Shown: in pieces, positions 22,954 to 42,764 of the stretch
How the letters are laid out: the number at the start of each line of letters is the position of its first letter
Numbering within the stretch: the stretch's first letter is position 1
Origin: Flaccisagitta enflata
Taxonomy: Eukaryota
Assembly (NCBI GenBank): GCA_965153355.1
Contig: OZ231126.1
Coordinates: 46,624,001 to 46,688,000 of the forward strand
DNA length: 64,000 nt
Direction of reading: 5' to 3'
Notes under the pieces: generated by a model
Seen by the model: the letters and a program-made list of their open reading frames with translations, nothing else
The model's database searches: none
What the model was told of the DNA's origin: nothing
Position numbers and translations under genes: made by a program

Positions 22954-23802
22954 TGTTACTGAGCAACCTCAGTATATATTTCTAATGCCCTATTATGCTC
23001 CTGCTTTAGCGTTCGCGCTGAGTCCTTGACTGCTTGCTTATGTCTTCTAATAAATACAGCGAAATCTTATCCAAACGAATTCTTTATTAGAAGAAGATAT
23101 CCAAAGCAACGTAGTTTGAACTGTAAAGGACAGATAATAATGGAATTTAGACAGAGACACAAAAGCTATATAGTTAGGCCAGATGCTTTAAGACTCTAAA
23201 AATGTAACATGAAAATGAATCTAATATGTAAAGGAGGCCCAAGTTACCTTGGTTATGCGCTGAGACGGTAAAGAAAAGTATCCAGTATTCTCCAAAATCA
23301 GAGGCAAAGTATGAGAGTAACAATCCAAATCAGTAAATCCGGAGCAAATAAATCGTAATAAATTCGCAGGAGAATCTATCGTAAATGAATAATGCGGAAG
23401 GGAATTTGGCGGCTCTCGACTAATTCTAAAAGTGGTCAACAGAGGGCGCTGAATTCCGCCGCCAAAATCGCCTAAACATAAGGCCCGCTCAAATCTACCG
23501 TAAACAAAAGGCCTCTTCGTAGGTAAAGCGAATTAAAGCAAAGGACGCGAATAAACCGAAACTAAACAGAGAATAAATCTATTCGGACAGACAATAATCA
23601 AATGGGACAGACATAAGGACAGTTCAGACAGACAAAGGACATCAAAATAATCATCAAAATATAAAATCAAAATAATCAACCTGAAAAGAAAAGATTAGAA
23701 ATACCCAAATACCTACCTGAAATATGAACCCAAATTCAATATATATAAACCAAAATAAATCAATACCAATAAGACATGGCCCCAAAACCTTGCTTCACGA
23801 CA
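22954..23802 (-). repeat. 3' LTR (849 bp)
   Basis: Direct repeat of 41918-42764; immediately preceded on the minus strand by the purine tract GGGGGGAG. Confidence 0.96.
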
Positions 23803-23810
23803 CTCCCCCC
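23803..23810 (-). other. Polypurine tract (plus-strand primer)
   Basis: Minus strand reads AAAACGGGGGGAG directly before the TG of the 3' LTR. Confidence 0.85.
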
Positions 23811-24439
23811 GTTTTGACTCAAATTACAATATGTTTTATGCCAATTTGGGGAAAAACTATAACGAAGTCTTGAAGCTCGGTTTTGGGCAATTTTATGTTA
23901 CACATTTGAGATGGAAAACACTGTAGTAAGAATCTTGAGGGATGTTTCTGTCGACGGCTTCACTGAGCTCCTCTGCTCATTCTTGTACAATTATAGATGT
24001 GCACTTATTAGAGTTTATTTGTTTCTGGTGTTAGTAAGTTTCAGGTGTGCACATTGGGTGGGGGGGGGGTGGGACAATTTCAATCTCAATTCTCCGTAGT
24101 ATCAACTCTCGTCGAGTTTCGTCGATGGTGATCGTGGGCACAAAATGTTTAGTCAGCGGTAGTCAGATGGAAAGTTTGTTAGTTGTAAGTGCCACGATCG
24201 AAGTAGATAATCGAGTGACCGCGTGCGCTTTCCGATTGTAAAGTGTAGTCGAACGAAAGTTTGTAAAATGTAAGTGCTACGGTCGAGAAGGAATCGCCCG
24301 TCGCCGAAGGTGAATTATAGTCCGATCGAAGTCGATGATGATTGCGGATTGCGTTCAAACCGCCACCGTACAATGTTCGTTCGTCGAATGAGCGCGGACT
24401 GACCAAGTCCGCCGAAGAAGTCGTATCGTTGAGTGGTCG

Positions 24440-24487
24440 CAGCCTGTGCCCCGCCGAAGCGGGTCCCATCCGGGCGCAAGCAGGCTG
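24440..24487 (-). repeat. Structured 44-nt motif, copy 1 of 3
   Basis: gcctgtgccccgccgaagcgggtcccatccgggcgcaagcaggc; also present at 27416-27459 and 31150-31193. Confidence 0.85.
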
Positions 24488-24549
24488 ACGTCGAAGAGGT
24501 CCATTCCATTCGTCACTACGTCGCCATCGTCGTTGACGTTGTTGTTCCG

Positions 24550-24672
24550 TTGTTGTTTCATTGTTGTTCTGTTGTTGTTTCATTGTTGTTCTGTTGTTAT
24601 CATTGTTGTTCTGTTGTTATCATTGTTGTTCTGTTGTTATCATTGTTGTTCTGTTGTTATCATTGTTGTTCA
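24550..24672. repeat. 20-bp minisatellite (cattgttgttctgttgttat)n
   Basis: Visible tandem array of about 5-6 units. Confidence 0.85.
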
Positions 24673-24747
24673 TTGTTTCTTATCGTTGTTGTGTTGTTGT
24701 CGTTTACATTGGAGGTCGCGGTGCTAGATCCGTTACAGGCGAACGGA

Positions 24748-26555
24748 TCATTGCCGACGACCACCGCTGTCGGAGTTGTCGAGGATGTAAGCGAAGAAGG
24801 TGTTGATGCGTTCCGTGGAGTTGTTGAAGCGTACATGATAGTCGTGAAGTCGTCGATTGCTGATGATACGCTGTCGTCCCCAGTAACAAATCAGCTCCAC
24901 TCTTTCGCGGACGAGCCTTTCGTAGCGATCTTCCCTGTTGACGCGCCTTTGGATGATTCTTCGGAGATGGAAGGCGGCGAAGGCGCGGTAAATTACGCGC
25001 CGATCGTTGCCGTGATAACGGCAGAGGTTAGATTCGAAGGTCATCATACCGGTACGGTCAATGTGGTAGATGTATCGGTCGAGAAGCAATCCCCAGTCGT
25101 TGGTGACGGACGAGTAGCGCCATTCCCCTTCGAGGACGACGAGCGGATCGCGTCGGACGCGCATTCCAAGACCTCTTTTCAAATTGAGCAACAAGAAAGA
25201 GTCCACCTTGAACCACGTCCATACGTCTATCGCGCGTGCGGCGATGCCTCCAGGCGGGGCCCAATATGTCGACGCGTCGTCGCTGTCGTCGTCGTCGTCG
25301 TCGTAGCATCTTGCTCCGTAGAGATGGCGAATACTTTGGACGAACGACACGAACCCGCGATAAGAATATTTGTCCACAAACGTTTTTAGGAACGGCGGCG
25401 CCATGTCCACCATGCGTTCGGTCGAGACGATGTGGACCTTCCATTCGAGATCGAGGATCCATTGGCGAATGCTGTCGCTGAACTCCGTCGCTTCACTTTC
25501 CCAAACTCGTACCGTCGGTCCGCTTCCGTAGAGGTTTCCCATGAAGACGACCTTCTTGTCGAAGCGGAGGACTCGTCGGACAAGTCGCTGCGTTTCCTCT
25601 GTTCCCCAGCGATGTACTAGATGACAATCCGGCAAGTGAGGATTGTAATAAGCGATCGTTTTAAAGGTAAGTTTATCGGAAAGAGGCATTTTAACTTTCA
25701 ATAGTCCACTCGGATTGATTTTCAAGTGCCTAAATTTGGTCAAGTACCAGTGAACATAATAATTATCATTGCGATCGAGAGTTGAGATTCAACAAGTAGT
25801 TTAATATTTAGTGAATGATTAGCAGTCTAGTGAATACAGTATGACCGATCTCACATCAAATAAGCGGTCCCAGAATCGTTGATGTCATATTAACAAGTCT
25901 GGAATTCATTGGCATCGAGTGAATGAATCGAGTGTCTATCTAACATCGAATGAATGAATCTAGAATCAACTTGACATCGAATAAATGAATCTAGAATCAA
26001 CTTGTTATCGAATGAATGAATCTAGAATCAACTTGACATCGAATGGATCCAGCAGGAGATTATTAGTGTTGAATGAATGATCAGTTCAATTTTGAATCAT
26101 TTTCGGATCGAGTCGAGTGAATGATTTTGAGTTCGTGAATGAATTTGTGAGTGGATAAGGCAACAATTGTCCGGTTGAGCAAAGCGTGATAGTTTTTAAT
26201 GTTTTTCTAACATCAACTCTCTGGAGAGTATGCGTTATTCGCCGCCGTCACTTTTCTTCGGGTAGCTAATCCGTCGTCGGTCTTCGGAGGCGCCAACGCA
26301 ATTCTCCCCCCGTCGCCTTCTTTCGCCCACACTCGTCAGCGGAGGATCCTGAGGACGATGGAGTTGAGGGTCAATATTAATATCTATCGTTTAACTATGT
26401 TTCATAGCGTTTATAACGCATTCAAAGAGGGTATCATCGTCACACTCTATCATCGATACGCTTTGCTTAACCATTCTTACCGATGATCTTTCATCGTTGC
26501 CATTCGTTCGCTGACTAGAATTGCTCCTTTCACCGAAGTCGACTATCGTCCCCAT
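24748..26555 (-). CDS. Accessory gene B: main exon 25616-24748, tentative upstream exons 26555-26481 and 26348-26252 (~346 aa, unknown function)
   Basis: The 331-aa ORF has globular, aromatic- and Arg-rich composition and an acceptor catctag|TA. The upstream exons are phase-compatible (TCG|gtaaga..cctcag|GAT; AAA|gtgacg), but the second donor is weak. Confidence 0.55.
25915..26045. repeat. ~31-bp tandem repeat (atcgaatgaatgaatctagaatcaacttgac)
   Basis: Three to four degenerate units visible. Confidence 0.75.
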
Positions 26556-26819
26556 TGTTCGAGATCGAGAAGAAAGTCACCACGGTTTTCGTCGCCAATC
26601 AATTGTTTCAATTCATCTCTATACATCGAGTTTTCTCGCATTCTCTTGGAATGCGTCGTCTGAGTTTTTAATCTCTCTGATCGAGTCTGTACATTTTGAA
26701 TCATCACATCTTCAATGAATCTGAGGAAAATGACCATTTTTACGGTCCGGTGTTATCATCAATATCATTTTTATCATCATCATCATTTTATCTTTATCCT
26801 CTTTTTTTTTTAAATTTGC

Positions 26820-27125
26820 GATATCATCGTCATCGGCATTGTACATTTAACAGCAGTAATGTAATCACAATCATTGTGCCTTTTTTCCTATCTGAACGAT
26901 GAGACTGAATCTGTCAGTCCCTCTGACCGGAAAAAATATAGCGCTGATTTTTAACCACGAAGGTAATCTAAATATACATATCGTCATCGGCATCATATAG
27001 CAAAGCAATATAATCACAATCATCGTGCCTTTTTCCCTATCTGAACGATGAGACTGAATTTGTCAGTCTTTCTGACCGGAAAAAATATAGCGCTGATTTT
27101 TAACCACGCAGGTAATCTAGACATA
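26820..27125. repeat. Tandem duplication of ~160 bp inside the accessory region
   Basis: atatcatcgtcatcggcat...gtgcctttt...ctatctgaacgatgagactgaat...ctgaccggaaaaaatatagcgctgatttttaaccacg..ggtaatcta occurs twice. Confidence 0.8.
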
Positions 27126-27129
27126 CATA

Positions 27130-27380
27130 CCGGCATCAGCCGGGGAAAAATATGTTTGGCCTAAGCCGCAAGAAACATTGGCCGAAGCCACCAGAATTAT
27201 CAGGACTAAGCCTGCCAAAAATAATAGGCCGTAGCCAGACAAGAAAATATCGGCCGGAGCCGCCTAAAAATCAGGTCTAAGCCTGTACTTAAAACTAAGG
27301 CCGAAGCCATCAAAATAATCGGCTAAAGCCGCCAAAAAATCAGGTCTAAGCCTGTACTTAAAATATTGAGCCGTAGCTCA
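27130..27380 (-). repeat. Array of ~11 mini-hairpins (GGC-UNNG-GCC type on the minus strand) with variable U-rich spacers
   Basis: On +: ccggcatcagccgg, ggcctaagcc, tggccgaagcca, caggactaagcctg, ggccgtagcc, cggccggagccg, caggtctaagcctg, ggccgaagcc, cggctaaagccg, caggtctaagcctg, tgagccgtagctca; period about 21-28 nt. Confidence 0.75.
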
Positions 27381-27412
27381 CAAGCATTAAATCAAAGATA
27401 AATCATGAGGGA

Positions 27413-27462
27413 TCCGCCTGTGCCCCGCCGAAGCGGGTCCCATCCAGGCGCAAGCAGGCGGA
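27413..27462 (-). repeat. Structured 44-nt motif, copy 2 of 3
   Basis: Same core with one substitution; closing stem extended by tcc/gga. Confidence 0.85.
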
Positions 27463-27663
27463 CCCCTAAAAAAAAAAAATTTACGAGTATGATTGGATGC
27501 CATTAGGGCTGAAAACAGGCCGATTAGTGATTTGACGATGGATACAAGCCGATTGATGACGATGGATCAAATCTGATGATTGTATGTACATGATGATGAT
27601 GCTTCGAGGAGTGAAGTGCGGTGCTGCCGGCTTCAGGCGAGCCGGATCTGCCGCTACTTCTGC

Positions 27664-30600
27664 TCACTCAAAGTTCTTTCGCAGGTCATAGTAATCCCGC
27701 TTCCTCATGACGACGGCTGGCGGGTCGTGGCCGGGGGGGCGATGGACGTGGCCGCAGGCGCGGATTCCCTCCCAGTTGATGACCATGTGTTCTCCGATCG
27801 CCTTTTCCCATTCCCGAAGTCGGTCGTGGTGGCGGGCGACCCAGGAGGAGGCGTTGCAGACGATGAAGGCGCCTCTCGACCACACGCCGCAGGATTCTCC
27901 GGGAAGCGGTTCCGTGATGACCGGACCTGAAGCGAAGATGGTTCATCTAAATCTAACTGTTCTCCTAAGTCGAGTAAACTTAGGCTTAGATCTAGTTCTA
28001 AGTCTAACGGGTCAAAGCCTAATTCTTCTTCTAGATCTAACTCGACTAGTTCCTCTCTGTCTGTTCTAGGTTTTTCATTTGGTTCTGTCTGATCCTCAAT
28101 CGCTTCTAGGGTGGTATCTTCGTCATCGTTCTCTTCGAGATTCCCTTTTTTTAACTGATACAATTGATTGACTCTTTTTCTCTTTAATTTCCTTTTCTGC
28201 TGTCCTTCGTTCTCTTTCTCGTTTTTGTTCTTATCTTTGTTCTTTTCTTTGTTCTTTGCTTTGTTCTTTTCTTTGTTCTTTTCTTTGTTCTTTTCTTTGT
28301 TCTTCTCCTTCTTGTCCTCTGACGGCTCTATCGTCAACTTCTTCCGTTTTTTCTCTTCTTTTTCACCGTCTGAATTGTTTCTTTTTCTTTTCTGTTTTTC
28401 CTCGTCTGTTTTTTCTGTTTTTTCTTCGTCGGTTTTTTCTGTTTTTTCTTCATCGAGGAACTCGATTCTTCTTCTCTTTGACTCGATGTTTTCTTCTGCT
28501 TCTTCCTCATTTTTCTTTAGTTCTTCCGCCTTTCGTTTTTCTTCGAGTTCTTTTTCATATTTTTCTAGTTCTTCTTCAAAATTTCTAACCGGGCTGGCTG
28601 AGGCTGGATCAACTATTTGGACGGTATACCTTTTGCGGGGCAGAGGTAACCTCGGGAGAGAACGAGCGATTGCGTTTGTCTCCCGGATTTTCCTTGCCAG
28701 GGCAGTGTTGTGTGTTTTCTGCCATTCAATGTTTCTTTTGTTTGTTTCTTCTTTAGCTAGTGACTGTCTCAGATATATAATTCTTCCCTCTGTTTTTTCT
28801 ACCTCTTCATCTAGTTTCTTAGAGTGAGTAGCTAGCTGGTAGTTGTCAAGAAGTTTGCCTGACTTGGTGTAAATGGCCCCTGAATCGGCCTCCTGATCAA
28901 ATGGCCCCAAAGGGGAGATGTGGGTAAACTCGACATTGGGTCTGGTTAAGCCTGACTCTTCAATGGGTTTACCGGAGACGGGTAATGCGGCTCGACGGGC
29001 GTCTTCGGCAGCCTGTCGTCGGTCAGCGGCGTCGAGGGCGGTTCGGCGGCGGGCTGATCGCTTGCGATCCTCCTCCGCCAACCGTTTCGCCTGCTCGGAT
29101 TTGACGGACATGTTGGTGAAGTACTCGCTGGGGCGGTCGAAGTCGAGCTGTCGGCCGTCCCAGTTTTCCGCCGTCTTGACTTGAGCCTTTCGCCGGTGTG
29201 GATTGCAGCTGAGGATCTCGGAAGTCCGGTGTCCTTCGCGAAACGCGTAGTCGATGGTGGACGCCATTTGCTGCGGATTCAGACTTCCGTAAGGTCTCAA
29301 GGCCGCATCTTGCTGCAGAGCGATGTGGACTCGTCGGTCGAACTCGATCACCTTCTCGTCGACTTCTTTCTCGTTCATTCCGCGACCCAGCAAGGCTTGT
29401 CGGACGATGCCGCGATAAACATTCTGATTGGTTACATGAGGCAAAAAGGGGGGGGGGGGTTGTAAACATAAGTTGCTTCCCTGTCTCCTATTGCTCAGTT
29501 ACAAGTGTCCAAACAGGTGAAACATAATTCCAAGGTGATTTATAAACTGTTTTCCCGAATCCTACCACTAGTAAGCATGGTATTAAATTCATAGTTACTA
29601 GAAGAAAAGATCAGTAACAAATTGATATCCTAGGCTCACCCTAATCTTTCTGTCTTGAAGTTTGAGGGTGAACGCTTTATCGCGACGCGCTTGAGAGAGC
29701 CATTTGGGGACGCTCCACCCATGGGATCGCCAGAACTGAATGACTTCTGGGCCGATCTTCTTCTGCCACCGCTCGTTTAGCATCTCGGCTTCGGCGAGGG
29801 TCTTGCACGGCCTCACCTCAGAAAACATCGCGTTCTGTTCATCATGGGTGAGGGCCGCACGTTGGGACGGAGTGTGAGTGGGATGGGCTTCAAGTCCTCG
29901 GAACTCGAGAACTTTCTCCAGTTTGTCGATGTCGTCGTATTGCTCCCATTCTTCCTCGTCGATGTCATCCTCTGGATTGTTGCTGAACACTTGTTTGGCA
30001 ACGTCAACCAAGTCGGCTCGATCGTGGGCGCGATAGGAGATTTCCTTTCTTAGCTGTTTTCCTACAAGGGGAATTTGAGCCAATATTATTTGGTGTCATC
30101 ACCGTCCCCATGATAGAGTGAGAGAGAGAGAGAGAGCAGCGGAGGCGGCGTGGCTGTGCAAGGCTCGTCTGTAGACCTTGCCCGCTCCATGCTTCCTCCG
30201 CTGCTGATGATAAGACAACATTGACAGTGATAATCAGGCAGGTTGATTGTTTTGAATTAGTTATTACTAAACTATGCTAACCATTACTAAACTCTCGATT
30301 TCTAGCTATGCTAGCCATTACTAAACTCTCGATCTTTATCAGTTTTGTTGACTGAATTTGTTACCTGCTCGATCGATTTTGCAGGCATGCCTCTCGATGA
30401 AGTCCAGCGATTCAGGGATGTGGACATACACGGCTGGGAGCAAGACGTTAAATGTGTCCGCGATCGCCTTCCACTCTTCTTCAATGACCTCTTCGTCCTC
30501 TCTTCCCTTCTCCCTCTCTTCTTCCCTGTACCTTTCTCCCCCCGTTATCTTTGCCTCTTCCATCGTTTCCTTCCAATCTTTCTTCCTCTCCAACGCCTCT

Positions 30601-32036
30601 ATTCTGTCCCTAATACCTTGAACTTTCTCCCTTTCCCTCTTCTCCTGCTCTTCCTCACCCTTCTGCTTCTGCCTCATCCTTTCCGCTTCCTTCTGTCTTT
30701 CTCTTTCCGGCTTGTCTTCGGCGAATCTCTGCCTTCCTTCCTTTTCCGCTCTCTCCTTCGCCGCGTCGCGCAGCACGTGTCGTCGATGGGCGATGGCGTG
30801 GAATTTCTCCTCCACTTTCTTCAGTCTTAACTTATTCTCCTCCGCCTCCTTTTCTTCTTCAGGCAGAGCTGCCAACGCCGCCGATTCTTCCCTCATTCTC
30901 TTCAGTTTGTTTCTCCTTTTACGCTGGTTTCGGGTCAGCGGAGGAGGCATGGAGCGGGCGAGGGCTGCAGACGAGCCCTGCACAGCCACGCCTCCTCCAC
31001 TGCCCTCCACCGGCGGCCGAGGGGATGAGGAGCAAAGAGGAGGAGGAAGCGGCGGTGGCTCGACGGTCGACGAGGCGCTGGCGTCGGGTAGCCGGTTCAA
31101 CTTCTCCCGTAAGTCTTTAATGAAGACGTCGCATGGTCGAGAGGGCACAGCCTGTGCCCCGCCGAAGCGGGTCCCGTCCGGGCGCAAGCAGGCTGGCGTC
31201 TCGTTGGGAGAAGGGCAGCGCGGCGTCGAGATGGAAATGGGCGTCGCTGCGTCGATGCATCCCGCCAACATGGTGGACGCCAAAGAGACGTCCGTGGTCG
31301 ACGCGAGGGATGAAGTCGACGACGCCGGCGACGGATCAGGGGGAGGCATCATGAACGGCTGGAGATCGTGGCGGCGTTGAAGGGGGCGTCCTTTGGAGTA
31401 AGAGGAAAGGTTTTAGAGGCAAAAATATACATCGGGTGTAAGGCACGCGAGAAAATCGTCAACACAGTGGCTTACAAGAAAGATGACATCGAAAACGCAC
31501 TGAGAACAGGGTTCATATCGCTAATTATTCTTAAAGATTGCTTAACATGAGTGAATTGTGATTTATTAGGTGAAATGAGTGATTTCCTTGATCGTTAGGT
31601 TACAGGCTCGAATGACTCAGACACTGTGATTGTGGAAGGATCACATATTGATTAGTGGGAGTGACTTCTCACCTTTATGACGGAATGAGGGCACTTGACG
31701 CTGTGGCCGTGGTGGCGAATTGCGGCCCGTCAAGGCTTTGTGGCGGGGCACGCGGGGGGCTTTGAAGCCGTCCAAGGTTTGAGGCGGGAACATCACCGGT
31801 CTTTTCGCTTTGACCACCGGTTCCGCCGGCACTTCTTCCTCCGCTTCCGCCTCCTCGCCCGCGACGCTCTCCTTCAGCCAATCGTCCACCTGCTGGCGCT
31901 TATTCTCCCGTTGCTGTCGATGGTACGACCGCTCTTCATCTTGCTTCCTTTCGCTCTGGAATCGGTTGAAGCGGACTTCGTCCTCTTCGTCGTCGCTGAC
32001 CTGTCGGTCATGCATCGATCGATTTGGAGACGACAT
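27664..32036 (-). CDS. Accessory gene A: spliced, ~841-aa charged/proline-rich protein of unknown function. Exons 32036-31673, 31390-30365, 30061-29640, 29423-28973, 27926-27664; the last intron may be retained, giving a stop at 27705.
   Basis: Separate ORF-track ORFs (131, 337, 161, 579, 73 aa) join in frame at GT-AG sites with matching phases: AAG|gtgaga..ccaaag|GA, CAG|gtaaca..ttgtag|GA, AGG|gtgagc..aatcag|AAT, CCG|gtaaac..cttcag|GT. Exons are GC/CpG-rich and introns more AT-rich. No recognisable domain. Confidence 0.7.
31148..31195 (-). repeat. Structured 44-nt motif, copy 3 of 3 (inside a coding exon of accessory gene A)
   Basis: Same core with one loop substitution; translated as PACLRPDGTRFGGAQA. 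Confidence 0.85.
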
Positions 32037-32470
32037 GACGACAATAGCGGCGAAGGATAATCGAATTTCGCTTTCCGAAGATAATTCAGTTCAAAAATGG
32101 TTAACAATTTCTTCGTGGACGTATCGCACGGAATACACTCGTGACAATCACAGAGTGGGGAAGATAATTTCTTACTGAACCTGAGCACGAGGAAGCAAAC
32201 GAGTTTGTAATAGTTTATGTATAACAGTGGCGAGAAGAGAGAGGAAATAATGCAGCAATTCAATAATATCTATCCAACAATGTCTATTATGGTCAGTTGC
32301 AATCTCCGTCAACAGGCAATATCTGTTCTAACTGTCTAAGTTAACAAAAAATGCCAAAATTTATATCGAGCTTTTGATAATAATGGCATGTATCTAGATC
32401 GATCCCCCTCGTCATGGGATTTCACATGAGGGGTCGAAGTTGAAGGTGCGCCCAGCCGTTCTCTCAAAAT

Positions 32471-32699
32471 ATGCAAATTAGTGAACCGGAAGTGACAGCG
32501 GAAGTCGGACCGGAAGTGACGCGTTTCCGGCCACGCCTACTCCGCAGTCGAGGAAAGGGAGATTCTCATCGACGCTCTCCTCTCCTCCTCCCTGATTCTC
32601 GACTTCGACGCCATCTTGGATTACTCCGTCGACGGATTGATTTTCTCCTCCTCGCTCCCGGATCCGAAAGTGCTCGTCTTATTCGAGCTTTCTGATTGG
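32471..32699. promoter_or_regulatory. Candidate internal promoter/enhancer (octamer, tandem ETS sites, YY1, CCAAT)
   Basis: ATGCAAAT 32471-32478; CCGGAAGTG at 32486 and 32510, GCGGAAGT at ~32498, TTCCGG at 32525; CGCCATCTT 32609-32617; ATTGG 32695-32699; CpG-rich; lies between the pol stop and accessory gene A. Confidence 0.5.
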
Positions 32700-33314
32700 T
32701 TGACACGGCTTAGTCGAAATTGATTCTCCAAGCGTATTATCAAGAAAGTGATATCATGGGCTATTACATATGCGTTTCGTATATATGATTCAAAAAAGGG
32801 AAGAACTATAGTTTGAGCGCGTCTACTGGCCTCAGTGAACTACCATCGCTACTGTCGGCTATAGTGAATGACTAATTATGTAATTTTAATGTTCAGACAC
32901 AGATAACCAACTACCGGCAGTAACGAATATCTAAATAGTTCTATCTAACGATGAGGCAAAGATGAAACGTGTTGTTAGTTGTAACAAATGACTGAATGGT
33001 ACACTTTTCATTTGTCAGTTATGAATGACAGTGAAAACCCGGCAATAACGAATGGTTTTGGGTTACGTTTTGCGATGTCTTTAGTAATTAGTTGTACTAA
33101 TATTATTAACGTTCTCCAGTACAACTTAAATGAATTTTAAAAATTGACATCGGACTTATCCAGGGTTAGTAGTCTACAGAGTCTGCTATAGTGAACATTG
33201 TCGAATTCCTAAATGATTGTTGTCGTCGGGGACAGGATGAATGTTGTAACAAGTTTTTTTTAGAGCTTCGATCCTGTTTTCTCCCCCCGTGGAGGACGAA
33301 TTTATAATTCAAGT

Positions 33315-36300: not shown

Positions 36301-37757
36301 TCTGATTTTATCCTCCTAGCTGTCTCTTTATCATCTGTACTCTCTAGCAAGTCATCCACGTACATGGCGTAGAGTAACGCCAAGTACGTGTCTACACTAA
36401 TCTTGTCCTTATGTGTTTCTGCGTGAAGCTTGAGGATAAAATTGGAGATGGTGGGTGATGAAGTCACGCCGAACATATGGCGCAAACTTTCAATCATTAC
36501 CACCTTCTCCATGGTCTCGTCAGACCACCAAGGATAGCGCAAGGCTGAGCGATCCCTAGGGTCTAACAATATCTGAAAAAAAAAGTTTGTGATATCCGCC
36601 GAAATGGTGTATCTTTTTCGGCGGAATCGCAAAATTACTTTTATTAGGCCATTCAAAATGTCAGGACCGCTAAACAAGTATTTATTCAAAAAATGAGGAC
36701 CGACTCTGGAAGCGGCGTCCTGACAAATCCGGAATTTTCCGGGTTTGTCAGGTTTAACTACAATATGATTTGGCAAATAACAGACAACATTTTCGGGGGG
36801 GGCGTCTAATGTGTCTATTATCCGCGCATGCCCCGCTTCCAGAGTCATCCTCATCTGTTTAAAGGATCCCTCTTTGAGGGTCGGGTTTAGTCTAAATTTG
36901 CGTTCCAGTTTTGAATGGCGGTTCATGGTCATTTTGTAAAAATCTATGGTTTTGAACAGGTCAGCGGTGGGTTGGCGCCCTAAACGCCATGGCATGGTGA
37001 TTTCCCACCTTCCTTCTTCTTCTACAAATCTAGCTGATTCCTGCATCATCTTTAAACTCTGTTCATCTTCAACTGATCTATGTGTCATCTCTTGAGGAAA
37101 TAGCTCGAAGTCCCTACAGATGAAATCCTGTCTGAACATTCTATTTATCATATTTGCCAGGGTGATGGTTTCAGCACTAATGGTCATGATGTTGTTAGCC
37201 TGAATATCATTTTCATCATCTTCCTCTTCATTGTCATTTAAAATTCTGGGGCCTATAATCGCATGGCCAAATTTTGTTCCCAGTGCTAAGGGCTCGTCAT
37301 GTTTGCCCAGGCGGTTATCTCCCGTGCAAAAATAATATGCGTACTTAGCATCAAGCAACAGATTAATTTCTTTATCTTCTAATTCACATATTTTCAGATC
37401 CTTTAAATGCTCAAAACAACTCAATTCGCTTTGGGTGGGGGGTTTTTCTGTTTCTGTAGATAATTGGCTACCAATAAGGGCGTTTTCTACTTTTATTTCA
37501 AAGGTGTTACTCAAATTAGTAACTTTGAAGGAAGTGATTTGTCTTGTAGCATTTGAGGAACTGTCAAAGGTGTTTAATTTAACTGAAATTGATTTTCTGG
37601 GTGCATTTAACTCATTGCAAAGTGACTCAGTTACGGCGCTTGTGTTAGCGCCGGTATCTATGAGTGCGTAAGTGGGGCGTCTTTTACCATTTACATGAAT
37701 CATCACAGGTACAATGGGCCTGGTGGCACCGTGACGCCCCACGAACGCAGCCCTCAG
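33315..37757 (-). CDS. pol: Bel/Pao Pol: aspartic protease, reverse transcriptase, RNase H, integrase; in frame with gag after a single TGA
   Basis: YALIDTGANTS (PR); KFRICQDAAS, ADITNFFFQI, FGVTSSP, YVDDLL (RT); LFCDAS, IPRLELCAA, FSDSLTVLGW, NPADLAS (Pao RNase H); CITCQR, LDCLGP, SDNGTNF, GGSWERLV (IN); FWEQF...PGDLVLV...WPMGRI (DUF5641-like). No internal stops. Confidence 0.97.
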   Translation of the reverse strand: MRAAFVGRHGATRPIVPVMIHVNGKRRPTYALIDTGANTSAVTESLCNELNAPRKSISVKLNTFDSSSNATRQITSFKVTNLSNTFEIKVENALIGSQLSTETEKPPTQSELSCFEHLKDLKICELEDKEINLLLDAKYAYYFCTGDNRLGKHDEPLALGTKFGHAIIGPRILNDNEEEDDENDIQANNIMTISAETITLANMINRMFRQDFICRDFELFPQEMTHRSVEDEQSLKMMQESARFVEEEGRWEITMPWRLGRQPTADLFKTIDFYKMTMNRHSKLERKFRLNPTLKEGSFKQMRMTLEAGHARIIDTLDAPPENVVCYLPNHIVVKPDKPGKFRICQDAASRVGPHFLNKYLFSGPDILNGLIKVILRFRRKRYTISADITNFFFQILLDPRDRSALRYPWWSDETMEKVVMIESLRHMFGVTSSPTISNFILKLHAETHKDKISVDTYLALLYAMYVDDLLESTDDKETARRIKSEITAVLKLGGMDICKWKSNFPDLDLPSSLSLTPLDRDNANVEVATPAQVETAKGQSANAEPSKGGHGCPGGRGTRQPACGLGEHRAPPPTPSTPPVEDADPDEDEDGDPDDEEQEAQLSPSELVSILNNGYTESCAKEFLNESDLSDKVLGLGYSFEEDVMNVRVGTKPDREIVTKRDLLSFVASVYDPIGLVSPWLLPGKLLFQKISSDTIPWKTALTPEMKNDVVKWQQTIVHLKKIKISRWTNPLGMEHSVCQLVLFCDASKDGYGMCSYLRRYQRGAEDKISVSFLVGKAHVVPTNMMLNPTKGAIPHSDSIPRLELCAAKVAAQWRDTLVRDAGEEFEDIFIFSDSLTVLGWLNNFTKRFRTFENFRVKCIRSLSPLSEWRHCPTLMNPADLASEGIKANDTKKWHIFHQGPPFLSLPLSQWPPVRPNPTNKNPAELVADVAALNIIAAYGSTEEPIVEAQNHDFAPWPLKATSKLSEWRTKIRRVAIIKRVILKLRERVKNKQQGVMSTRLRTKIEKPDKYIIHLSDSEREDAENMLVRALQNVEFEREILSLIKLGIFSPNSIQDMNIKNSKLAKLCPFLDESNVMRAGGRIAKAEYLPYNHRFPIILPNSSHEIVQSIIRHYHQAHYKKFHCTIMQTHLLLRGKYFILGGKNSVRSVISKCITCQRLSKNKATQKEGNLPAERMAIVPPFYHCALDCLGPFHLRHTGRGTRKQFVLIACCMSTRAITLVPLRDMTTSSIINSLVKIHSQFPALKHIFSDNGTNFRGADREIKESVAAWKKENLSEELDKLELTWTFGPAYCGSYGGSWERLVGLSKKLLRSVIGSKNVDLEDFETLLSGASAIMNRRPLTPVSADVDDDMALTPAHFLYPYLFTSTMNHILPPQAEKTSVLRHGFRCSQYLLDAFWEQFRANYLQQLLKRSKQSSTVVKPGDLVLVEDIATAREDWPMGRITRIINSDESHGRRFLVRLSNGRIVDRAIRSLILLEM

Positions 37758-40700
37758 TCAGTCAGTATCGTCACCGCCATCTGAAGCTTCATCTGACTCG
37801 CTATCTTGATTCTGTTCTGTCTGTCTTTTGTAATCCCGATGTAATAGCGAGTGATGAAACCCCCCTGTACAATGATCGCACTCAATCCCTGAGTCACAGT
37901 TCTTTGCAATGTGACCATGCTGAAAACATCTGTGGCATAGTCCTCTGGTTTTTAGAACTAAAAATCTCCCATACTGGTTTTTAGCTAGGAACTCTTTACA
38001 GTTGGTAAGCTCATGGAACTTGGACCGGTTGCAGACGGGGCACGACCAATTACCTGTAGTCTGTTTGGAAGTGGCTGCAGATTGGTTGTTGTTCCCTGAC
38101 GCCGAAGAGTCAGTGTTGGCGCCCTTTCTTTGATTGTTGGCGGCGTCGTTTCCGCCTGAGGGGCGCTTGCCGGTTCCATAAGTCTGAGATTGTTGTTTTT
38201 GTTGCGTCTCGAGTTTGGCGGCCGCCACCTGTGCAGCCTTTTGTTGCTGTTGTTTGACCGAAGTTTGCGACGCCGCGGGAGTGTTGTCTGAAGGTGAGGT
38301 ACTGTTGTTGCCGGGAGTAGAGTCATTTCCTCCTTGCGGCTTTCCTCTCCCTCTCCCTCGCTTTCCTCCTCCTCCTCTGAAATTGTTGGTTGTTTCGGGG
38401 GCGCCGTTGGTTGATGTTGGTGACGCCGCTATAGCGTCAATTTTCATTGTCCTGGCGTCTTTCTTATTTTTGGGCGTCTCTTTGGGACCTCCAATCAACT
38501 CTCGTTCGTCCGAGATGAAATTTTGCGACCTGAGGAAAGTTAGGAAATCATCAAAACGGGGTTCAGGTTCCGCATTTTCAGGTTCAACACCCATGACCTG
38601 TTTACCCCTTTCGACTGCCCATCGATTTTTTACAAATGGAAGTTTTTTCCTAATTATCTTGTTTATAGTGTCAGCGTTATCAAAGGAATTAGCCCTTCCT
38701 GAGGCTTTAGCCTTAGTGACCTCCCCTTCTAGGTTGATTCTAAACTTTTTAAAGGCTGCTGTATCCTCCTGTTTAATAGCTGCTCCTGTTAAGAGACGAT
38801 CTATTATGGCTTGAGCTGACCGGGCATGATACCCATACTCCTGTTTGAGGTGACGGATTGCTTTTTGTAGATTCTCTTTGGGGTCCCCCTCTCCCTCATA
38901 GAGTTCACATATTTTAGCGGCGTCGCCGCTAAAATAGTGTTTTAATTCATAACACTGTTCCTGGGGGGCTACTTTTGATTCCTCAGTAACTCTCTTAAAT
39001 CTAAGCAGGGTGGATTCGAAATCTACATTATGATTCCCGTCAAACCTCTGATCGATGGGCAGTCGGTTGGACTTCAAATAATCCCTAGCATTACCAGCAG
39101 TTTGAATTAATAGTAACTGTACAGCAGCATCTTTAGCCGGGTCTGGCACACCATTAGCAGCACCTGACGAACTGTTAACTGTGTTCGATTGATTGCTAAC
39201 TGTGTTTGACTGACTGTTAACTGTGCCTGGCTGACTGTTAACTACATTTGAGGGGTTGTTAACCGCACCTGCTGATGATTGTGAGGAGTCATTTTGGTTT
39301 CCAGGACTGGTAACCGTCGATTGGTAGTCTTCGTCGTCGTCGGATAATGGCGTCCGATCTAATGGCGTTGGGTTCGTTGCGACGGGTGGAGGATTTGTTG
39401 CTGCCGGGAGCGAGGGCGCCGCCGCGGGAATCGAGTTCGCCGCCGCAGCTGATGTAGGACTCACTCCCGCTGGAATCGGGTTTGCCGGCGCGGTCATCGC
39501 CTGTGGGACCGAATTAGATTGAGGATTAATCGGTCCAACCGGATTTACAGTCGGGTAAATGGGCAATGAGGGCGGGGGCATTTGGAACCTTGGGTCAAAA
39601 TAAGGCCATACAAACTGAGGGTTAGGCCAGGGAAATGTTTGACCTGATGGGGGCATCTGAATGACTGGGGGATTCACAGGGCTGGTACAGGCTACAGGCG
39701 AGCCTGCCGCTGCCGTGACTCCTCCAGCCGGGTGGAAAAGAGGGTTAGACTGAGGTGCCCTGGGGTTAATTGGATGGTTAATAGGCCCATTTATTCCTGA
39801 TTGGGCTCCGCGCCTAACAGTACTAGCAGTGATGGTTGAACTGCCTGAATCGGATGAATGATGATGATCGGGCTGACCCGACCTGACTTGACCTGACCTG
39901 ACCCGTCCTGACCTTACCTGTTCAGGCTGACCGGTTTGGGTCTGATTGGGGGCTGATGTTTGAATGTTCTGATTTTGACCTTGAATTGGAGCTGGGTAAG
40001 TCTGATCGGGGTCATGGTTAAATTGACTCTGAGGGGTATTGTCTTGCCTTATAACTGGGGTGATAGATTGATTACCGGAATGACCCACTTGAGGCTGATT
40101 ATTTTGGTCAATGGGAATCGAGGGATTAGAGGATTGATTCCTGTCATGCCTAGAGGATCGAGATCGAGGTGGTCTGTCATTACGGTCCGTATTTCTCGAG
40201 CAAGAGGAAATTGAGTCGGTCGGTCTGACCGCTGCCTGATTAGGGTCATTTTGAGTATCTAACCAGGAATCTGTACGGGTTGGACCGACTGGTGCTAAGG
40301 CTGCTCCACCGAGTGGATGTTGGAGCAGATCGCTTAGTTCGCCCACGGCAGCGTTTACATGTCTGCCTATTGACTGCAAGCTGGTATTATGTGCTTGTTC
40401 AGATATCCTAGTCATCTCCTCCTCATATCTTTGAACCCTTCTTTCAAGCCTACCCTTCTTTCTGTGAATTGAGTCATACCTAACACGTAGAATCGAGGTG
40501 GCATTTCCGGCGTTGGCGGTGGCCGGCGGGCTCTCGTCCATAGCGGGCTGATCGAAGTTAGTCCGATTAGAGGCCGTTGATGAGGAGACTAACGAGGTAT
40601 GGTCGGTCATCCCGGATACTAAGGATGTTGCATTAGATCGAGATGGAATTTCGCGGCGTCCGGCGCTGTTATTGCTTTCCGGCGGCGCCCTTTCGCGCGT

Positions 40701-41450
40701 CGTTTCATCGTCTATCACGGACGGCGCCCTCGACGTCTCACTGAAGGCTATGAGGGCTAGTTGAGGTTGAGGCGCCGTTCCAGCGGCCGCCGGCGTCGTC
40801 GCGATGGGCGCTGTAGATGATGCTTCCGGCGCCGGGAGTGCAGGGCGCGCGGGCGGCGCGGGAAGCGCCGGGGAAGCGGTTGGTCGTGTCGGTGCGGATA
40901 GTAACGGCGGCGGCAGTGGTCCTATGAACGGCTCCCTCGGCGGAAGCGGACCTACAGCCGGCGGCGTCGTTTCTAGTAGGCTGATCCGATTGAGCGGCGC
41001 TACTCGCAAATCGAGGGGAAACGGAGGAAGGACTGGTCCAGCGTCTCGATTGATCCTGTTAAGGAATGTACCAGCGATTTGTGGGTCAATTTCTATGACT
41101 GGTGGAAATTCAAAAGGTGGATGGGAGTCTAGTGACATCTGCATCCGACCAATTATACTGATCAAACTATCCCTGTCTGCAATGATGGTAAATTTATCAC
41201 AGATCTCAGAAATGGCTAACTTTTGTACTGTTAACTGAGACCTAAGGTCATTGGCCTGAACCTTAAATTCCTGGTCTGGATGGTCTCGGCCCATGCCAAA
41301 GGCTTGAACGAATTTTTGAATAAGGGCCGTAGACTCTTTTATCAGCTTACGGGCGTGACGACTATCAAAACGGGCAGCAACGTCATAATACATGGCACAC
41401 CCCGGGGGTAGGCCCCTGGGCGCGTCAGGGGGTAAGCCCCCTTCTGCCAT
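37758..41450 (-). CDS. gag: Bel/Pao Gag-like protein, 1230 aa
   Basis: Long ORF with a DUF1759-like core (FDGN...ELKHYFSGDAAKI...LKQEYG) and the C-terminal Cys/His cluster CPVC..H...C / CHRCFQHGHIAKNC / CDHCTGGFHHSLLH typical of Bel/Pao; long P/S/Q/N low-complexity N-terminal half. Confidence 0.92.
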   Translation of the reverse strand: MAEGGLPPDAPRGLPPGCAMYYDVAARFDSRHARKLIKESTALIQKFVQAFGMGRDHPDQEFKVQANDLRSQLTVQKLAISEICDKFTIIADRDSLISIIGRMQMSLDSHPPFEFPPVIEIDPQIAGTFLNRINRDAGPVLPPFPLDLRVAPLNRISLLETTPPAVGPLPPREPFIGPLPPPLLSAPTRPTASPALPAPPARPALPAPEASSTAPIATTPAAAGTAPQPQLALIAFSETSRAPSVIDDETTRERAPPESNNSAGRREIPSRSNATSLVSGMTDHTSLVSSSTASNRTNFDQPAMDESPPATANAGNATSILRVRYDSIHRKKGRLERRVQRYEEEMTRISEQAHNTSLQSIGRHVNAAVGELSDLLQHPLGGAALAPVGPTRTDSWLDTQNDPNQAAVRPTDSISSCSRNTDRNDRPPRSRSSRHDRNQSSNPSIPIDQNNQPQVGHSGNQSITPVIRQDNTPQSQFNHDPDQTYPAPIQGQNQNIQTSAPNQTQTGQPEQVRSGRVRSGQVRSGQPDHHHSSDSGSSTITASTVRRGAQSGINGPINHPINPRAPQSNPLFHPAGGVTAAAGSPVACTSPVNPPVIQMPPSGQTFPWPNPQFVWPYFDPRFQMPPPSLPIYPTVNPVGPINPQSNSVPQAMTAPANPIPAGVSPTSAAAANSIPAAAPSLPAATNPPPVATNPTPLDRTPLSDDDEDYQSTVTSPGNQNDSSQSSAGAVNNPSNVVNSQPGTVNSQSNTVSNQSNTVNSSSGAANGVPDPAKDAAVQLLLIQTAGNARDYLKSNRLPIDQRFDGNHNVDFESTLLRFKRVTEESKVAPQEQCYELKHYFSGDAAKICELYEGEGDPKENLQKAIRHLKQEYGYHARSAQAIIDRLLTGAAIKQEDTAAFKKFRINLEGEVTKAKASGRANSFDNADTINKIIRKKLPFVKNRWAVERGKQVMGVEPENAEPEPRFDDFLTFLRSQNFISDERELIGGPKETPKNKKDARTMKIDAIAASPTSTNGAPETTNNFRGGGGKRGRGRGKPQGGNDSTPGNNSTSPSDNTPAASQTSVKQQQQKAAQVAAAKLETQQKQQSQTYGTGKRPSGGNDAANNQRKGANTDSSASGNNNQSAATSKQTTGNWSCPVCNRSKFHELTNCKEFLAKNQYGRFLVLKTRGLCHRCFQHGHIAKNCDSGIECDHCTGGFHHSLLHRDYKRQTEQNQDSESDEASDGGDDTD

Positions 41451-41908
41451 GATAATTTCTTTTTAACTAAAGTCGATCAGGGGGTTTAGATCCTTAAATA
41501 GTTCAGGCCAAAGATCTTGGGTCAAGAAGGCTCGCGTACCGAGGCCTAACTGACGCCTAAGATACTAAATTCTGTTCTTCCTGGACACGGCGCCCCTCCT
41601 AAGGGATGGGCGCGAGGACTAATTATCGGACGGGCGTGACCCTTAGATGAACAAGTTTCTAACAACGCAGTTTCTCTTATAAATCCTATCTGACGGCCGA
41701 AGCTCTTCCCGGAGGAAAAGCACGGAACGTAATTTAACGAGAATTAGCAATGGACCGGCGCCCGTCGTGAGAGGGGCGCGGTCCTAAATTCGGATCGGTA
41801 AATAAATCTGAGAATTGTACTCGTCGAATACTCACCCACGGAGACGAAGTCTTTGACGTTTCCAAACGCAATTAAGCAAGAGCATAAAAAGAGCGCGCGA
41901 TATCAACA

Positions 41909-41917
41909 AGTTCAAAC
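41909..41917 (-). other. Non-canonical primer-binding site (candidate self-priming site)
   Basis: Minus strand after the 5' LTR reads GTTTGAACT with no TGG; it is complementary to LTR 42076-42084 (minus AGTTCAAAC). Confidence 0.5.
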
Positions 41918-42764
41918 TGTTACTGAGCAACCTCAGTATATATTTCTAATGCCCTATTATGCTCCTGCTTTAGCGTTCGCGCTGAGTCCTTGACTGCTTG
42001 CTTGTCTTCTAATAAATACAGCGAAATCTTATCCAAACGAATTCTTTATTAGAAGAAGATATCCAAAGCAACGTAGTTTGAACTGTAAAGGACAGATAAT
42101 AATGGAATTTAGACAGAGACACAAAAGCTATATAGTTAGGCCAGATGCTTTAAGACTCTAAAAATGTAACATGAAAATGAATCTAATATGTAAAGGAGGC
42201 CCAAGTTACCTTGGTTATGCGCTGAGACGGTAAAGAAAAGTATCCAGTATTCTCCAAAATCAGAGGCAAAGTATGAGAGTAACAATCCAAATCAGTAAAT
42301 CCGGAGCAAATAAATCGTAATAAATTCGCAGGAGAATCTATCGTAAATGAATAATGCGGAAGGGAATTTGGCGGCTCTCGACTAATTCTAAAAGTGGTCA
42401 ACAGAGGGCGCTGAATTCCGCCGCCAAAATCGCCTAAACATAAGGCCCGCTCAAATCTACCGTAAACAAAAGGCCTCTTCGTAGGTAAAGCGAATTAAAG
42501 CAAAGGACGCGAATAAACCGAAACTAAACAGAGAATAAATCTATTCGGACAGACAATAATCAAATGGGACAGACATAAGGACAGTTCAGACAGACAAAGG
42601 ACATCAAAATAATCATCAAAATATCAAATCAAAATAATCAACCTGAAAAGAAAAGATTAGAAATACCCAAATACCTACCTGAAATATGAACCCAAATTCA
42701 ATATATATAAACCAAAATAAATCAATACCAATAAGACATGGCCCCAAAACCTTGCTTCACGACA
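41918..42764 (-). repeat. 5' LTR (847 bp)
   Basis: Begins tgttactgagc and ends cttcacgaca on +; matches 22954-23802 apart from one 2-bp indel and one substitution seen by eye; lies upstream of gag on the minus strand. Confidence 0.96.

Follow-up and report, generated by a model that had tools for sequence, protein, structure and literature searches.

Bel/Pao is the least studied family of long terminal repeat (LTR) retroelements; its members are described as compact, 4-10 kb long, and as carrying at most gag, pol and env. The family (Belpaoviridae, genus Semotivirus) is described as 4.2-10 kb long with one to three genes, ranges that are descriptive and supply no criterion of descent, with gag and pol continuous or overlapping and with LTRs of 0.2-1.2 kb (PMC8742986); the same length range is given in the accessible part of PMC3118150. 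The accessible sections of a 2019 review of giant eukaryotic transposons cover Cyclops (12 kb), Ogre (16-25 kb, with an interior of 11-13 kb), the gypsy-like Burro of planarians (>30 kb) and foamy-like endogenous retroviruses (ERVs) of fish (17 kb), and the word 'Pao' does not occur in those sections (PMC6431247). No giant, accessory-gene-bearing or intron-bearing Bel/Pao element was found in the literature, in which PMC3118150 was accessible in part; its Additional file 9 (maximum lengths) may list longer ones. Here we analyze an element in a 64,000-nt stretch of Flaccisagitta enflata contig OZ231126.1 (assembly GCA_965153355.1, positions 46,624,001 to 46,688,000). This whole stretch is called the window, and positions in it carry the prefix w. 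The element is 19,811 bp long, lies on the minus strand at w22954-42764 and has an interior of 18.1 kb.

Our best explanation, to which we give a probability of roughly 0.72, is that the element, full-length and inserted recently, is one copy of a high-copy Bel/Pao family with accessory genes, of which gene A is the cargo of a subfamily. It includes that gene B is a conserved, full-depth accessory factor of the lineage, and that the lineage itself is a deep and diverse branch of Bel/Pao for which unnamed marine data are so far the only source. There is good support for the separate clade, for the size, for a gag-pol boundary of the readthrough type, for the two conserved orphan genes and for the retention of sense introns; the roles of a repeated RNA motif and of the accessory proteins, and an export system like that of retroviruses, are what we infer beyond this. 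Canonical Bel/Pao elements (Pao, BEL, Tas, Cer and roo) are like this one in LTR length, polypurine tract (PPT), CCHC gag, the order of protease, reverse transcriptase (RT), RNase H and integrase, and the presence of Peptidase_A17 and DUF5641. The element differs from them in being 19.8 kb long instead of 4.2-10 kb, in having four genes instead of one to three and no env, in a gag/pol region that is split by an in-frame stop instead of being continuous or overlapping, and in a pol that a long, well-supported branch separates from every one of the 15 named animal pols included.

The element is real, intact and, judged by the identity of its LTRs, young. The two LTRs are 99.65% identical in a BLASTN alignment of 849 columns; the only differences are 1 mismatch and 1 gap, namely a G/T substitution and a 2-bp TA indel. 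On reading the sequence both have TG..CA ends. The stretch from the pol stop to the PPT (w33314-23816) holds 9.5 kb of extra sequence. A sequence-only reading had reported the 19.8-kb size, the near-identical LTRs, the open gag and pol and the 9.5-kb extra region, and all of these were confirmed. BLAST against the rest of the 64-kb window revealed no second copy or fragment of the element. The insertion point is inside a (CT)n microsatellite; the flanking 5-mers are identical, but such a match is trivial within this repeat and carries no information on a target-site duplication. Bel/Pao primer-binding sites are complementary to tRNA-Arg or tRNA-Gly. The presumed primer-binding site of this element does not start with TGG, and the window contains no tRNA gene.

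The family was followed in sequencing runs X1 and X2, both from the same coded organism, in the marine metagenome X3 and in the poly-A RNA run X12. The 2-bp TA indel (w42002 versus the w23040 region) is polymorphic in the family, the TA form accounting for about 1/3 of the depth in X1, for 40% in X2 and for the whole depth in X3. The difference between the LTRs may stem from exchange among copies instead of new mutation, and because such exchange is possible, dating by LTR divergence is weakened.

The family is high-copy. Contigs matching the element numbered 1,163 in X1, 1,232 in X2 and 431 in X3, with about 35-41% of them at least 99% identical to this copy. Across the 15 bins that begin at the pol stop and end with the 5' LTR the median summed word depth, which is not a copy number, was 1,476 in X1, 1,258 in X2 and 52 in X3. 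An assembly chimera or a collapsed repeat could be suspected in a family that is so highly repeated, the more so as no single public contig spans the whole stretch. However, 30 of the 30 bins of the element were covered in each of these three independent runs, contigs cross from the pol stop into the following spacer (X3, w32856-33646) and through introns 1 and 3 of gene A (X1), and the LTR pair, the PPT and the reading frames are coherent. An artefact of this kind is therefore barely credible.

The placement in Bel/Pao comes from pol. Pfam identified an aspartyl protease at residues 19-76, RVT_1 at 377-505, Peptidase_A17 at 660-836 (E 4.5e-37), Integrase_H2C2 at 1106-1160 and DUF5641 at 1388-1478 (5e-13), and DTG, YVDD and DDE-type motifs were recognised by eye. 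This Pao-type Peptidase_A17/DUF5641 signature, together with the domain order, bears out the Bel/Pao identity that had been proposed. Between its RT and A17 domains the pol protein also has an acidic insert of low complexity. A word-indexed search with pol found 183 proteins at E<=0.001, and the figures that follow rest on the best 120 of them. PF05380 is present in 120 of these 120. The 49 closest matches (35-97% identity) comprise 48 proteins from ENA assemblies and 1 from Logan, none of them named; they are pol-only open reading frames (ORFs) of about 930-1,530 aa, and the gag domain PF03564 is present in 0 of the 49. Many of the distant matches are gag-pol fusions with PF03564, and named animal pols start at about 30% identity.

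The phylogenetic tree of pol was constructed using FastTree from 73 hand-chosen rows, which comprised the window, 43 close unnamed proteins of at least 1,300 aa, 15 named animal proteins and 14 other unnamed ones; shorter close matches were omitted, and the rows include neither an outgroup from Ty3/gypsy or retroviruses nor GyDB reference clades. A branch with a support of 100 and a length of 0.77 sets the window, together with the 43 close unnamed proteins, apart from the rest. Pol sits in a well-supported, diverse clade that contains only unnamed marine sequences. The lineage may be undescribed, as had been proposed; its novelty was assessed against the literature only, not against Repbase, Dfam or GyDB.

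The gag and pol genes are two ORFs in one frame, without overlap, and are parted by a single UGA. Neither contains an internal stop, so the earlier description of gag and pol as uninterrupted holds for each ORF, but the two are not one ORF. The gag protein matches the gag part of fused Bel/Pao polyproteins with E values down to 1e-10 (local BLASTP), and CCHC knuckles can be read in its C-terminus. Pfam gave no match to gag at E<=0.01; weak matches to DUF1759 (ORF residues 833-948, E 0.19) and zf-CCHC (E 0.12) occur in the expected order. The residues up to about 800, which precede the weak capsid match, are of low complexity and rich in proline, serine and glutamine. Local BLASTP detected no paralogy among the proteins of the element.

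The base after the UGA is C, and within 104 nt from the stop there is a long stem-loop (-42.6 kcal/mol, z -3.34), which was equalled in stability by 2 of 200 shuffles. In 7 of 7 fetched relatives the pol ORF starts within about 20 codons of the post-UGA position. Because the pol ORFs of the relatives begin at this point, the gag/pol break is a trait of the lineage. From the UGA and its stem-loop we infer that Gag-Pol is made by stop-codon readthrough. Murine leukemia virus (MLV), a gammaretrovirus, also has an in-frame stop between gag and pol with a stable RNA structure close after it. The context is UGA-C in the element and UAG-G in MLV, and what is predicted in the element is a long hairpin rather than a demonstrated pseudoknot.

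Two orphan accessory genes lie downstream of pol in sense orientation; both are coding and conserved. Gene B is a real coding gene of a small unnamed family. Its homologues include five clusters with 98, 79, 75, 43 and 39% identity and invariant motifs, a profile search of 1.84 billion proteins found 20 representatives at E<=0.001, and of 31 members examined from its seven clusters 0 carry a name. With a codon model trained on pol, the codon score of gene B is highest in its own frame. Among its listed variants, 10 of 17 sites are synonymous compared with 22% expected (p 0.001), the 17 sites being the best-supported ones shown and the expectation being one that transition bias would raise. The divergence spread of the gene B family resembles that of pol, and neither gene B nor pol has relatives in viral contigs.

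The gene B protein of the window had no Pfam match at E<=10, a best E of 0.99 in a PDB sequence search and no usable match in the ESM Atlas. AlphaFold models reached a pLDDT of 44.7 with 6 sequences and 68.5 with 25, and Foldseek found 0 matches of the model in PDB at E<=0.001. Two sets of candidate matches were rejected. When 25 family members were compared with Pfam at E<=0.1, six families were hit by 1-2 members each with a best E of 0.0076, which is the level of chance; and the best score in a wide structure search (VIA), Z 7.2, covered only the long C-terminal helix 227-310, a generic coiled-coil match.

Gene A consists of four ORFs, with lengths of 149, 357, 165 and 597 codons, that share the gag-pol frame (frame 0). 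The gaps between them are AT-richer and filled with stops (GC 0.39-0.44 in introns, 0.49-0.60 in exons), and each is bordered by a strong GT donor that lies 23-39 nt ahead of the stop of the preceding ORF and by an AG acceptor located 22-75 nt into the following ORF. By a splice weight matrix, the donors rank at percentiles 99.6, 96.8 and 98.8 of 850 GT sites and the acceptors at 98.6, 97.2 and 76.5 of 1,324 AG sites. The three joins keep the frame and give a spliced coding sequence of 1,176 codons with 0 internal stops. In a sliding window the codon score goes up in the exons and down in the introns; the signal is weak in the last ~200 nt of exon 4. Homologues of exon 4 form two clusters with 64-67% identity, one of which has 16 slightly differing members of 513-552 aa, and in longer homologues the similarity starts exactly at the predicted acceptor of intron 3. 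The exon 4 product has a conserved N-terminal part of ~300 aa, a K/E-rich basic low-complexity part and then a conserved leucine/aspartate-rich stretch; overall gene A is rich in Glu, Arg and Lys, with basic runs before that stretch.

The only Pfam match of gene A is DUF5946 at E 0.015, below the cut-off of that family; a PDB sequence search gave 0 matches, the ESM Atlas gave no usable match, and in an alignment scan of JGI metagenomes 224 pattern stretches matched and 0 were confirmed. Neither gene A nor gene B has a hydrophobic segment. There is no env-like ORF, and among sense ORFs of at least 60 aa hydrophobic segments occur only in ORFs of 63 and 131 aa. An inverted repeat of 72 nt (88.9% complementary) joins intron 2 (w30132-30203) with exon 2 (w30936-31007), about 730 nt apart; it could make a long RNA duplex that influences splicing or supplies small-RNA pathways, and Rfam gave only weak miRNA-like matches below threshold, on one arm.

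The public contigs contain gene A with introns and, in one contig, without intron 3. A joint in X2 (29423->29640) skips 216 nt with CT..AC ends on the plus strand, which are GT..AG in the sense direction, and this is exactly the predicted intron 3. Contigs in X2 average ~54 nt, which fits low-coverage genomic data; if X2 is DNA, a partly spliced RNA of a gene A-bearing element was reverse-transcribed and integrated. In X1, contigs span introns 1 and 3 unspliced at a depth of 117-127, compared with 142 for exon contigs. Since the intron-bearing contigs are as deep as those of the exons, most copies of gene A retain their introns. Joints other than that of intron 3 have sides of 20-33 nt, non-canonical ends or low-complexity flanks, and were not interpreted. 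Of the suggested spliced accessory genes, the genes themselves are supported, and so are the three GT-AG introns of gene A, one of which is absent in one contig; expression from spliced RNAs is a candidate mechanism.

The extra genes invite comparison with other giant elements. Ogre has a sense-strand intron, which is removed from only part of its transcripts. According to the accessible sections of the review, Ogre is a legume Ty3/gypsy element that shares with ours the giant size among LTR elements and extra ORFs without assigned function, but it belongs to another superfamily and kingdom and has LTRs of 1.9-6.5 kb around its interior of 11-13 kb, whereas the element described here has 0.85-kb LTRs around 18.1 kb and introns in an accessory gene (PMC6431247). 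The same sections present Burro as an animal LTR retrotransposon far above 10 kb, with many copies and added coding capacity. In Burro, however, host-like domains and an env-like part are contained in one huge polyprotein (PMC6431247), while the extra genes of our element are separate, lie downstream of pol, have no known domain and include one that is split by introns.

Depth is not uniform along the extra region. Over the seven bins of gene A (w27522-31980) the median summed word depth was 288 in X1, 199 in X2 and 3.3 in X3, which puts this 4.5-kb block at ~6-20% of the gag-pol depth in the three runs; against its reading as a subfamily trait it must be said that word depth is not copy number and that a fast-evolving gene A could drop under the 95% cut-off and so mimic absence. 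The 1.1 kb after pol are near full depth in X1, X2 and X3. The same is true of the 3' 3.7 kb save w26248-27521, where the values of X2 (561, 284) and X3 (28, 18) are below the gag-pol medians. Low-depth contigs stop at about w32176-32182, beside the acceptor at w32180 in the spacer, which ranks 13th of 1,324 AG sites. We conclude that only a minority subfamily carries gene A, or that other copies have diverged versions of it under the 95% cut-off. Among the 15 of 21 joints shown there was no clean one that deletes gene A. The possibility, raised earlier, that other copies lack the 9.5 kb is thus borne out in part by the gene A block and contradicted by the remaining extra sequence, which is at full depth.

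The difference in depth between the gene A block and its flanks could also mean that some or all of the 9.5 kb came in as an unrelated mobile element nested in this one, and the size of the region, its non-coding spacers and its internal tandem repeats would agree with that. Yet self-BLAST of the region revealed no internal LTRs, terminal inverted repeats or second PPT, the accessory ORFs have no Pfam transposase or RT match, and all coding is sense-oriented. Moreover, the 1.1 kb after pol and the 3' 3.7 kb, which contain gene B, are as deep as gag-pol, and the gene B family has diverged over the same spread as pol. A nested insertion is therefore very unlikely.

Gene A might alternatively be a host gene that was captured passively, either directly as DNA or by way of an unspliced read-through transcript, and that is a useless rider in a subfamily; only gag, pol and perhaps gene B would then matter for replication. 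Such an origin would agree with the multi-exon structure with GC-richer exons, with the reduced depth of the block in all three runs, with the tail of exon 4, which lacks coding signal, and with a count of codon positions in which 8 listed variants of exons 2 and 4 show no third-position bias. It would also agree with the homologues of gene A, which form two clusters, none of them near-identical, while near-identical clusters exist for pol (97%) and for gene B (98%). On the other hand, gene A shares the orientation and frame of gag-pol, its 16 slightly differing homologue members look repeat-borne, its introns survive amplification (intron and exon contigs at ~117-142 depth in X1), and it has no match among named host proteins. 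We consider this origin rather unlikely and continue with gene A as the cargo of a subfamily of the element.

A further feature of the element is a repeated RNA motif, a branched hairpin of ~60 nt with a core of ~45 nt, which is present in three copies, all in sense orientation. A 22-nt core recurs without a mismatch at 3 places in the window, where 0 are expected, and is absent from metagenome contigs and viral contigs. The copies share an 18-pair three-way branched fold with 1 compensatory change (A-U to C-G) and 1 one-sided change. A covariance model of the motif recovered these three sites and no others in the 64-kb window (E<1e-21; the next best 0.089), and two of the copies fold better than shuffles (z -4.32 and -2.59). 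Rfam gave 0 matches at gathering thresholds in the window, and only weak sub-threshold matches in the element. The structured RNA signals expected from the sequence are hence present in the form of this motif.

The following expression strategy would fit these features. Transcription by Pol II would start in the 5' LTR, and the unspliced RNA would serve both as genome and as gag mRNA; Gag-Pol would arise by readthrough of the UGA, aided by the hairpin 4 nt downstream. Gene A would be translated from a spliced subgenomic RNA that connects the candidate leader donor at w41836, which ranks 8th of 850 GT sites by the splice weight matrix, with the acceptor at w32180, and gene B perhaps likewise. 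At least four sense introns would have to evade splicing in the packaged RNA, so that a route for export and packaging of intron-containing RNA would be required. The repeated hairpin is the best candidate for a cis signal in this process.

Complex retroviruses solve a comparable task with a leader splice donor and with unspliced genomic RNA that coexists with spliced mRNAs. The element lacks env and belongs to another reverse-transcribing family, and its splicing is seen only indirectly, for one intron; proteins with tat, rev, bel or tas type homology were not found in it. The organisation of a complex retrovirus that had been proposed for the element agrees with the two conserved accessory genes and the splice signals but not with the missing env. 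Accessory genes 3' of pol are also shared with the foamy-like fish ERVs of 17 kb, as far as the accessible sections describe them (PMC6431247). It is conceivable, although we give it little credence at present, that a Bel/Pao lineage independently evolved complex-retrovirus expression, with the hairpin acting like a constitutive transport element (CTE) or a Rev response element (RRE) that is read by gene B or by a gene A adaptor. The basic region of gene A and its conserved leucine-rich stretch, which resembles an export signal, would suit such an adaptor. If true, hairpin export and UGA readthrough would let an 18-kb interior replicate in thousands of copies.

Several further observations weigh against parts of our explanation. 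The joining of genes A and B to pol is known from this copy alone. The splice sites were picked after the ORFs had been seen; coding signal is almost absent from the first ~450 nt of exon 2; and the intron lengths of 282, 303 and 216 nt are all divisible by three, which happens by chance in about 1 of 27 cases for the introns alone. In addition, the four exons of gene A share the genomic frame with gag and pol. The joint that corresponds to intron 3 was found in one contig (depth 139.9), has a shorter side of 30 nt and is marked 'between: not known', and the kind of run X2 is only guessed as DNA. The third copy of the motif folds no better than shuffles (z -0.39), and with only three copies the support from covariation is thin. 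Finally, ~6% of X12 was sampled (12.2 million reads) and produced only 10 partial matches, all on a low-complexity run of aspartate codons at w25271-25306 and none on the rest of the element; among the listed runs that contain element words none is on record as RNA, and runs X4-X11 contain small shares of the sampled words. With no usable reads from X12, the leader donor, introns 1 and 2, the subgenomic RNAs and transcription itself stand as predictions. The idea that the element may still be active was not borne out by the sampled RNA reads, which gave no usable match.

The coordinates of the features are listed in Table 1.

Table 1. Features of the Bel/Pao element in the window (window positions).
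Feature	Position	Strand	Basis or remark
5' LTR, 847 bp	41918..42764	-	TG..CA; TATA-like TATATAG at w42134, AATAAA at w42050
Leader	41451..41917	-	presumed primer-binding site adjoins LTR; candidate major splice donor GG/GTGAGT (exon/intron), exon end w41836
gag, 1,230 aa	37758..41450	-	ATG w41450, stop UGA w37760-37758; BLASTP versus gag part of fused Bel/Pao polyproteins
pol, 1,480 aa	33315..37757	-	protease, RT, Peptidase_A17 (Pao), integrase zinc finger, DUF5641
pol start and stem-loop	37660..37757	-	candidate readthrough stimulator, begins 4 nt after UGA
Post-pol non-coding spacer, 1.28 kb	32037..33314	-	candidate splice acceptor, exon start w32180
Gene A exon 1	31673..32036	-	ATG w32036
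Gene A exon 2	30365..31390	-	first ~450 nt weak coding signal; holds motif copy m31
Motif copy m31	31122..31200	-	inside gene A exon 2, in its weakly coding start
Gene A exon 3	29640..30061	-	ORF, splice sites, codon signal
Gene A intron 3, 216 nt, GT..AG	29424..29639	-	precisely skipped in one X2 contig
Gene A exon 4	27705..29423	-	stop w27707-27705; homologues; codon signal
Motif copy m27	27407..27463	-	~240 nt downstream of gene A stop; T run before
Gene B, 313 aa, single exon	24748..25689	-	homologues, codon score, synonymous excess
Motif copy m24	24414..24492	-	~260 nt downstream of gene B stop
Polypurine tract	23803..23815	-	purine run directly abutting 3' LTR
3' LTR, 849 bp	22954..23802	-	BLASTN and sequence reading

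The spacers of the accessory region contain tandem repeats, namely a 20-mer repeated 7.3 times, a 31-mer repeated 4.3 times and a unit of ~150 bp repeated twice (w24551-24698, w25913-26045 and w26826-27137). The 44 kb of flanking DNA are gene-free and dense in microsatellites and minisatellites, with 61 TRF rows at a score of at least 100 in the whole window outside the element. They have no tRNA, no Rfam match and, in their long ORFs, no Pfam domain but low-complexity noise. Such repeat-dense, gene-free flanks fit a large and repeat-rich animal genome. In the right flank two arrays (w43353-43852 and w48348-48941) have a common 9-base unit and 55-mer higher-order units; they are in opposite orientation, ~4.5 kb apart, with an array of a 20-mer repeated 20 times between them (w46371-46779). 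The two arrays may be the ends of another repeat-bounded element; microsatellites obscured the scan for inverted repeats in this flank.

A high-copy lineage with an interior of 18 kb would broaden the known capacities of Bel/Pao elements. Stop-codon readthrough, two conserved genes of no known fold and accessory-gene introns that survive retrotransposition would be features new to this family. The element would also offer a natural system in which to study intron retention in a packaged retroelement RNA and the capture and spread of cargo genes. Its abundance in an animal from marine plankton metagenomes suggests that it contributes to genome size.

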